A stretch of 64,000 nt of DNA from an uncultured Verrucomicrobiota bacterium (GTDB lineage Bacteria > Verrucomicrobiota > Kiritimatiellia > RFP12 > UBA3636), in the NCBI GenBank assembly GCA_946624575.1, contig CAMOSH010000001.1, forward strand, positions 7,778-71,777, written 5' to 3'. The notes below the pieces were generated by a model, which made no database searches, was not told the DNA's origin, and was given only the letters and a program-made list of their open reading frames with translations. The position numbers were made by a program, and so were the translations under genes. Below, piece by piece: positions 44,134-47,303 of this stretch. Position 1 is the stretch's first letter. Every line of letters starts with the position of its first letter.

Positions 44134-44679
44134 CTAGCGCGCCCAGGCGAGGACTTCGGCCGATAGCGGCGAAACCGCCTCGATCGAAATCTCCTCTTCG
44201 GTGAATTCGCCGTCGAAATCGGGATCGGGCAGCTGCACCACGCAGACCTGCCCGGCGCGGGCGCCCTCGACGGCGCGTGCAAGCGGCGCCCGCCGGGAGA
44301 CTATTCCAAGAGCCTCGTCGCCGTCCCAGTCGCCCAGAATCGAGATTGTGCGCGTGGTGCCGTCCGAGTAGCGTATCGACACGGACGACCCCGGTCCCGC
44401 GACGCCCTCCGGCGGCGTGTAGGCCGAGAAATCGAACACCGTCATCGACTGGAGCTCCTCGCGGAGCCGCGTCTGGCGCTCGATCAGCTGGCGTTCGCGG
44501 TTGCGGGCGCTTTCATATTCGAAGTTTTCCGACAGGTCGCCGAATTCCTTGGCTTCCTGGATGTCGCGCCTGTTGCGCGGCATCTCCTCGTTGACTATTT
44601 TGTCCAGCTGCGCCTTCCGCGCCCGGTATCCGCGCGCGGATGTCGCCCGTTCGGGCAGCGTGGTCAGCTGCGCGTCCAT
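44134..44679 (-). CDS. greA: transcript cleavage factor GreA/GreB family
   Basis: Coiled-coil tip FGDLSENFEYESAR (compare GreA HGDLKENAEYHAAR) and C-terminal FKBP-like domain. 181 aa. Confidence 0.65.
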   Translation of the reverse strand: MDAQLTTLPERATSARGYRARKAQLDKIVNEEMPRNRRDIQEAKEFGDLSENFEYESARNRERQLIERQTRLREELQSMTVFDFSAYTPPEGVAGPGSSVSIRYSDGTTRTISILGDWDGDEALGIVSRRAPLARAVEGARAGQVCVVQLPDPDFDGEFTEEEISIEAVSPLSAEVLAWAR

Positions 44680-47303
44680 TCCACGATCTCCTGGGGCAGG
44701 GGCTCAATGGAAACGACCGTGGCGGCAAGCGCCTCGTCGCCGTCGGACGGGATTTCGACCTTGTCGCCGACGCGATGGTCCATGACGGCACGCGCGACCG
44801 GGGTCTTGAACGAGACTATGCCCAGCTCCGGCGCGCTGTCCCATTCGCCGAGAAGCGCGTACGACTTGCGGGCGCCGTCCGCGAATTCCAGCGTCACGTA
44901 GGATCCCAGGCCGGCGAGTTCGATCTCGGCGTCGCCCTCCTGGGCGAAATCGAATGCCGAAACGCGCTTGAGATCCGCTTCCAGCTGCTGCTGGCGCGCG
45001 ACGAGTTCGCGCTCCTTGGCGCGGGCGCTTTCGTACTCGAAGTTTTCGGAAAGGTCGCCGAAGCCCTTGGCAAATTCGATGTCCTTGCGGTTCTGCGGCA
45101 TCTCCACGTCCATCAGATGGCGGTATTGCGCCTGGCGCTCGCGGATCGAGCGGATCGACGAGACGTTTTCAGCGGTTTCGCCGCGCGCCGGGGCGGGACG
45201 TTCCGCCGGAACCGAATCCTGAAGATCGGGGAACTTTGCGAGGAGGTTGGCAATGAGGTGCCGCTTCTTCAGCGGTTCCCAGATGCCTTCCATTCCCTGA
45301 AGCCGGATAAACACGGACGCGCGGCTTTCGTGGTCCATCTTCTCCATGAGCGGGAAGAGCCACTTGCACCCTTCGTCGATTTCGGCGGCAATCTTCGACG
45401 CGGCCGAAGTGTCGCGCCGGCCGGACACGAACAGCTTGCGTATGTCGTTCTTCATGCGGAGATTCTCCTTCTCCGCCTGGAAGCCGAGGGCGATGCTGGC
45501 CGTGGTGACGATCGCGTACGGGGAGACAACCTCGAAGAGCGCCTCGGAAAGCTTCGCGGATGCGGCCGCGTGGCATATCCAGCGCAGCAGCGGCATCGAA
45601 AGGCCGGGGGTGCCGCGCCTTGCGGCCGGGTACCGCCCGTCGTCCGCCGCGCCGTCCGCCTCGACGTATTCGGCGTCGTCTTCGACCGGGGCCTCCGGAT
45701 TGTGGATGCGGCCCTGCGCGAACTGTTCGCGAATCTTGGCCGCGAACGCATCCTTCGCGGGTCCGGAGAGAAGCTTCGGCGCGATGTGCTCGACGAGATT
45801 GGCGGTCATGTACGGAACCGCCTCGACGAAGCGCGACGCGACTTCAGTATCCTTGTCCAGCGGAATCGCCGCCAGAAGCGCCTCCATCTGGCCGGCCGGC
45901 AGCGTCTTCGATGCGTCCAGCACGACGAGCGGCTTGCAGAGTGTGCCCGCGGGATCGACGGCGGAGCACGTGTCGTCCGTGAACGCGAACGATTCGAGCA
46001 GGTCGTAGCGTGTGGACTCGTTCACGAGCAGCGGCACCGGGAGAGACGAGAGCCCGGCCTTGAGCGCCAGCAGGAGCGCCTGGACTTTGGCGCGGTTGCC
46101 GAGTTTGCGGTCTGCCACGGACGCCTTGACCACGAACGCGAGCCTGTCGCGAATCGCGGCGGCGGTCTCCGCCGGAAGCTTGTCGGCCGGCGTCGCCTGA
46201 AGCCAGGCCGCGGTCTGGTCGAGGATGAACTTGGCGTCGCGGCTCGCCACGAAGTCGCGCAGCGTCTTGTCCGCCTGCGCGGCGGCGTGGGTTTCGGCGC
46301 TGCCTGACCGCACCAGTTCCACCGGTGCGGTCTTCTTAACGGCCGGGGGCAGCACTACCATCGGATCCTTCGAGAGCTGGGCGCGCGCCTTGGTCCAGAA
46401 CGCCTTCCACTCCGTTCCGGCCGGCAGAAGCTTGAGTTCGGTGAAGATCGTCTCGATGCGGCCGGGCGTCATGTCGCCCCACGACTTGAGCGCGAGCTTC
46501 ACGACTTCGCCGGGATTTTCCGCGATCTGCTTGTCGAACGCGGCCGGGTCCGCGTGCCTCACGGAAAGCAGGTGTTCGGGGCCGATGAACGAAAGCGAGT
46601 CCACCGCGAACGCGAAGCCGAGGTCGCGGACCTTGTCCGGCTCCGAGTCGAATTTGACGCCGACAGTGCGGTAGAAGTCGTCTTCCCGCTCCACGATTCC
46701 GTAGCCGCGGACCTTGTCGGCCACCACCGTTCCGGGTTTGAGCGCCAGCAGAAACGCCAGTCGGTCGAGCGCGGCCACCGGCGGCTTGCGCCCAAGCCCC
46801 GACGACTCTATCTTGGCCGCGACGAGACGGTCCTTCGTGGCCGATGCGAGCAGGGCGGCGCATTCGTTGCCGTACGCGATGCGATTGCCCGTCCAGCGCG
46901 CCTTGAGGCGCAGCAGTCGCGCCAGCGAGACGATGTCGTGCATGTCGACGAAGCGCTGCTCGGCCACGAGGAACGCCTGGTCGCGGTATTGCTGCTCCTG
47001 CTGGTTCTTCGAATCGTTGAGGAGAAGCGCCAGATCGTGCATCCAGCCGAGGATTTTTGCCGCGTCTGGCACGGGGCGTTCTGCCTCGGTGACCACGAGA
47101 GCGCAGAGATCTGTTGTCGAAAGTGCGGAATTTGCTGGAGTTTCGTCGGACATGGCGCGGGCTTTCCTGGACTGATTCCGCGGCGCGTCGGGATTTGCGC
47201 CGGGAAAAAAAGGGATTTCGGGTTGTTCACCCGATGCGACGCGCGGAGGATACCACAATCCCCGCCGGAATGAAACGGAAAATTTCCGGCTCGCGTTTTT
47301 CAA
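44664..47303 (-). CDS. large GreA-domain protein: roughly 640-aa N-terminal domain of unknown function fused to a complete GreA module
   Basis: C-terminal 170 aa: IRERQAQYRHLMDVEMPQNRKDIEFAKGFGDLSENFEYESARAKERE... plus an FKBP-like domain. The N-terminal region has no recognisable family. Probable start at MSDETPAN (47153). 16-bp overlap with the downstream greA paralog. Confidence 0.5.
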   Translation of the reverse strand: MKNASRKFSVSFRRGLWYPPRVASGEQPEIPFFPGANPDAPRNQSRKARAMSDETPANSALSTTDLCALVVTEAERPVPDAAKILGWMHDLALLLNDSKNQQEQQYRDQAFLVAEQRFVDMHDIVSLARLLRLKARWTGNRIAYGNECAALLASATKDRLVAAKIESSGLGRKPPVAALDRLAFLLALKPGTVVADKVRGYGIVEREDDFYRTVGVKFDSEPDKVRDLGFAFAVDSLSFIGPEHLLSVRHADPAAFDKQIAENPGEVVKLALKSWGDMTPGRIETIFTELKLLPAGTEWKAFWTKARAQLSKDPMVVLPPAVKKTAPVELVRSGSAETHAAAQADKTLRDFVASRDAKFILDQTAAWLQATPADKLPAETAAAIRDRLAFVVKASVADRKLGNRAKVQALLLALKAGLSSLPVPLLVNESTRYDLLESFAFTDDTCSAVDPAGTLCKPLVVLDASKTLPAGQMEALLAAIPLDKDTEVASRFVEAVPYMTANLVEHIAPKLLSGPAKDAFAAKIREQFAQGRIHNPEAPVEDDAEYVEADGAADDGRYPAARRGTPGLSMPLLRWICHAAASAKLSEALFEVVSPYAIVTTASIALGFQAEKENLRMKNDIRKLFVSGRRDTSAASKIAAEIDEGCKWLFPLMEKMDHESRASVFIRLQGMEGIWEPLKKRHLIANLLAKFPDLQDSVPAERPAPARGETAENVSSIRSIRERQAQYRHLMDVEMPQNRKDIEFAKGFGDLSENFEYESARAKERELVARQQQLEADLKRVSAFDFAQEGDAEIELAGLGSYVTLEFADGARKSYALLGEWDSAPELGIVSFKTPVARAVMDHRVGDKVEIPSDGDEALAATVVSIEPLPQEIVEWTRS

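Follow-up and report, generated by a model that had tools for sequence, protein, structure and literature searches.

At the tip of the coiled coil of E. coli GreA lie two acidic residues, D41 and E44. Much longer Gre proteins are already catalogued, in two curated NCBIfam models which we take to represent chlamydial GreA and the GreA of Borrelia/Treponema, and the additional domain of these long GreA proteins is presumably present in the sole Gre factor of Chlamydia and of the Lyme and syphilis spirochaetes. One of the models, PRK06330, is labelled "transcript cleavage factor/unknown domain fusion protein", and the literature that we searched contained no functional study of GRAD or of long GreA. 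Among other factors that act on RNA polymerase (RNAP), UvrD/PcrA, CarD and Mfd grip the beta lobe via a Tudor-like domain. The nearest mechanistic precedent for a Gre-type factor with two sites on RNAP is HelD, the RNAP recycling factor of Bacillus subtilis, which like long GreA is a large multidomain protein and which combines a Gre-like secondary-channel coiled coil with a second RNAP-contacting arm (PMC7749165).

The window analysed here, a stretch of 64,000 nucleotides from an uncultured Kiritimatiellia bacterium, harbours two consecutive minus-strand Gre paralogues, just as an earlier note on this DNA had described: a long GreA gene (44664..47153, 829 amino acids plus stop) and a short one (44134..44679, 181 amino acids), with a 16-nt overlap between the long-gene stop codon and the short-gene start codon at exactly 44664..44679 (ATGGACGCGCAGCTGA; all features given below are likewise on the minus strand). 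The long open reading frame was listed as 44664..47303 (879 amino acids counted from a TTG), but the true start is probably the ATG at 47153 rather than the TTG at 47303. The exact 829-residue protein (P0001) is found in public collections, the N-termini of the homologues all align at the Met of this ATG, and a Shine-Dalgarno-like AGGAAAG lies upstream of it. Between oadG and the long gene, inside the TTG extension, there is also a terminator-like hairpin with a T-run (47218..47234), which we take as consistent with the revised start and nothing further, because the count of such sites was not above shuffled expectation; a promoter scan found none. The large N-terminal extension proposed in the earlier note is thus real and uninterrupted, with its start moved to ATG 47153 and its size corrected from about 640 to about 660 residues.

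Contrary to the description of this N-region as lacking any recognisable motif, PRK06330, PRK14720 and PF27167 all match it. Used alone, the N-region matched NF004969/PRK06330 (718 positions) at E = 4e-14, with residues 128-274 aligned to model positions 127-271. It matched NF011309/PRK14720 (906 positions) at E = 1.3e-4, and 18/18 diverse family members matched both NF004969 and NF011309. Precomputed Pfam hits for P0001 and 35 homologues show PF27167 (HTH_GRAD) with PF03449 and PF01272 after it on a single chain, and an exhaustive homologue search returned 299 clusters (50% identity), of which nearly all are fused to a catalytic Gre module; a repeat search with a diverse N-domain alignment recovered the close family only. 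The view that the architecture was undescribed therefore falls, because the fusion is both widespread and annotated (two NCBIfam models for long Gre fusions, PF27167, 299 clusters), an outcome that the earlier note itself had named as counting against it. Since the architecture is already catalogued, what the window contributes is no more than another subfamily member. Relative to the PRK06330 and PRK14720 fusions the domain order is the same, the core of the N-region is homologous to and collinear with that of PRK06330, and the Gre module is of the catalytic type, whereas the long protein scores far below the equivalog level of both models (120 bits versus a cut-off of 714 for NF011309; 115 versus 697 for NF004969). 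Compared to the common long GreA forms of about 715 amino acids, its N-region is about 115 residues longer, an Arg replaces a Trp in the Tudor turn (see below), and a tandem short paralogue is present. As judged from sequence, the long protein is a distinct subfamily within the long GreA superfamily (HTH_GRAD plus Gre); a contig scan with a single protein as query yielded one locus.

The C-terminal 165 residues of the long protein are a complete Gre factor with an intact catalytic tip. They comprise the N-terminal coiled coil (residues 664-730, 44964..45164; helices 667-696 and 705-730 in the AlphaFold model) and the C-terminal globular domain (residues 731-829, 44667..44963), for which Foldseek gave TM scores of 0.74-0.79 to GreA/GreB. 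The shared coiled-coil tip and C-domain noted previously were borne out, as GDLSENFEYESAR is present in both proteins and both lie above the gathering cut-offs for PF03449 (GreA_GreB_N; long E = 5.2e-13, short E = 2.4e-15) and PF01272 (GreA_GreB; long E = 5e-14, short E = 1e-10), and the two Gre modules share 44% identity (E = 6e-41). In both, the tip GDLSENFEY (45033..45059 in the long gene, 44515..44541 in the short gene) aligns with GDLKENAEY of E. coli and retains the two acidic tip residues of the Gre family, and 174/181 of the long forms and 34/35 of the short ones keep the catalytic tip. Unlike canonical GreA/GreB (E. coli; PDB 1GRJ, 2P4V), both proteins fall below the cut-off of 139 for TIGR01462 (90.7 bits for the long, 89.8 for the short) and under every cut-off of the PRK00226 models, and in the tree they group separately from the canonical Gre factors, in a clade with 195/200 bootstraps. 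They further differ by the motif LGEWD/LGDWD and by an extra C-terminal helix (residues 821-828 in the model of the long protein, which ends in EWTRS) that is common to the short paralogue, and the long form carries a further 660 residues.

In the AlphaFold model, these extra residues start with an N-terminal helical region (residues 13-137, 46743..47117, pLDDT about 80-94) that gave structural matches to generic helical repeats only, and lead into the Gre module through an alpha-helical solenoid (residues 286-647, 45213..46298, with a disordered insert at 491-513), whose matches were to generic HEAT, TPR and designed repeats only. Between these lies the conserved core, consisting of a Tudor-like domain that folds as a small, twisted sheet of anti-parallel beta-strands (residues 138-192, 46578..46742, containing a GYG turn) and a winged helix-turn-helix (residues 195-281, 46311..46571) with the most conserved motif, W249-K-x-F-W-x-x-A-R-x-x-L, that matches the N-domain fold of the RNAP delta subunit and HARE-HTH in the predicted structure. 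The N-region would thus be a helical scaffold bearing a conserved core, and we are fairly confident in assigning that core as a Tudor-like barrel packed on a delta-like winged helix.

At the sequence level, hhalign of the Tudor segment against RNAP-interacting Tudor domains gave P = 0.0012. The segment from the window matched none of the PcrA_UvrD_tudor, DUF3553 and CarD_TRCF_RID models, and 46 family members gave 2 (best E = 0.04), 15 (best E = 0.0025) and 0 matches to these, respectively, while a Tudor-only profile run against PDB sequences placed the UvrD1 Tudor at E = 0.86 amid chance matches, and the profile of the whole N-region matched PDB sequences at chance level only. The barrel differs from the CarD/CdnL N-domain, the Mfd RID and the PcrA/UvrD C-terminal domain in having no significant sequence membership and in being embedded in a helical scaffold instead of terminal. 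Moreover, the Trp of the Tudor turn, which is present in 173/185 family members, is R149 in the window protein, with Arg also in P0002-P0004 and His in P0005; in PcrA, the Trp of the W-G-x-G turn (W684) is required for RNAP binding (PMC5397179). For the winged helix, 16 members searched with E up to 10 gave no Pfam match to the delta subunit or HARE-HTH, and unlike the N-domain of the Firmicutes delta subunit it is followed by a helical solenoid and lacks an acidic C-terminal tail.

The top-ranked structural neighbours of the N-core are all RNAP binders. Taken as a whole, the best explanation, which we consider somewhat better than even, is that the locus encodes a long GreA with an RNAP-docking core beside a duplicated, free short Gre. 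Judging from fold and residues, the Gre module of the long protein would insert its coiled coil into the RNAP secondary channel and promote the cleavage of backtracked transcripts, while the N-core would provide a second docking site on the polymerase that keeps the Gre module resident, comparable to the two arms of HelD, and that could position long GreA at the surface used by other stalled-polymerase factors. Docking by the N-core, based on the modelled fold, is in itself slightly short of an even call. The earlier suggestion of a secondary-channel regulator carrying an extra domain agrees with the Tudor- and delta-like folds, apart from the supposed novelty of the arrangement. HelD also marks the limits of the comparison, being a UvrD-like NTPase that has its Gre-like arm at the N-terminus and dismantles the active site, whereas Pfam and NCBIfam models detected no NTPase domain in long GreA and its tip is catalytic-type.

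The same core could instead bind nucleic acid and not RNAP, with the winged helix, alone or with the barrel, targeting Gre to particular promoters or transcripts; CarD likewise pairs a Tudor domain with a DNA-contacting domain, and we regard this as unlikely but the strongest of the alternatives. Somewhat less probable again is that the N-region serves as a scaffold for a partner other than RNAP, such as a repair factor or, via a NusG-KOW-like barrel, the ribosome, thereby coupling cleavage to another process, as this is at odds with structural neighbours that bind RNAP and with Kiritimatiellia-type loci in which no conserved neighbour gene hints at a partner.

Turning to the short gene, its start codon is preceded at 8 nt by an AGGAG Shine-Dalgarno (44688..44692) located within the 3' end of the long gene. 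A relative at 72% identity (L002) has the same 16-nt overlap and others have gaps of 6-80 nt, and we rejected a programmed frameshift at the overlap that would yield a Gre-Gre fusion because these relatives have separate genes. The short form is a family of its own in Kiritimatiellae (about 30 clusters, 170-181 amino acids) that nests in the tree among the long-form Gre modules; the tandem copy is retained in 6/7 Kiritimatiellia-type loci, whose flanking genes differ, and was absent from the loci of the 715-residue type that were examined. It is very probable, taking this jointly with the family identity of the long gene, that the short gene arose by a lineage-specific duplication of the Gre module of the long gene. 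On the preferred reading, this duplicate would have shed the N-region at an early point within a Kiritimatiellia lineage, would be co-expressed through the 16-nt overlap with its own Shine-Dalgarno and, with its catalytic residues kept, is probably a freely diffusing Gre beside the tethered long form.

Both Gre copies are under purifying selection, and with a dN/dS of about 0.18 the short paralogue is therefore constrained. Its non-synonymous rate is nonetheless about 3.7 times that of the long Gre module, the first tip Asp is replaced by Gly in a close relative (P0042), and the Gre module matches Gfh1 structures as well as GreA, all of which would suit a short paralogue that occupies the secondary channel as a competitor or regulator, modulating its long counterpart in the way that Gfh1 relates to GreA. 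We consider this improbable in view of that constraint, of the exact GDLSENFEY in 34/35 short forms and of the similar coiled-coil charge of the paralogues, which also did not differ in a comparison of GreA- and GreB-type basic patches.

The earlier note had asked whether a stop or frameshift separates the N-domain from the Gre module. The frame is continuous, with no stop codon between the two, and the architecture of the long protein recurs in over 160 collinear homologues (20-91% identity), so the long frame does not stem from a frameshift or from faulty assembly. That an unrelated gene was fused to a Gre gene by frameshift or misassembly is exceedingly improbable, as its one favourable point, the many long spurious frames that high GC content creates in the window, is set against an identical protein on three contigs, the N-region-then-Gre order in 167/189 retrieved homologues (down to about 20% identity), the curated models of the fusion and purifying selection on the N-region.

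What goes beyond existing annotation is the duplicate origin and tandem retention of the short gene, together with tip retention and purifying selection in both copies, and the tandem short copy constitutes a natural experiment in removal of the tether. A broader proposal, which we put forward as rather doubtful, is that the "unknown domain" of long GreA, including that of Chlamydia and the spirochaetes, would be an RNAP docking module, composed of a Tudor domain of the UvrD/CarD/Mfd type and a delta-like winged helix, that makes Gre a resident quasi-subunit and positions it at a surface shared with other factors acting on stalled polymerase, and that Kiritimatiellia duplicated Gre alone to give a pair of tethered and diffusible factors. 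The useful product is a testable hypothesis for a domain still called "unknown" in curated annotation. If true, these phyla would rely for transcript cleavage on a factor that stays on the polymerase, possibly competing with repair-coupling factors.

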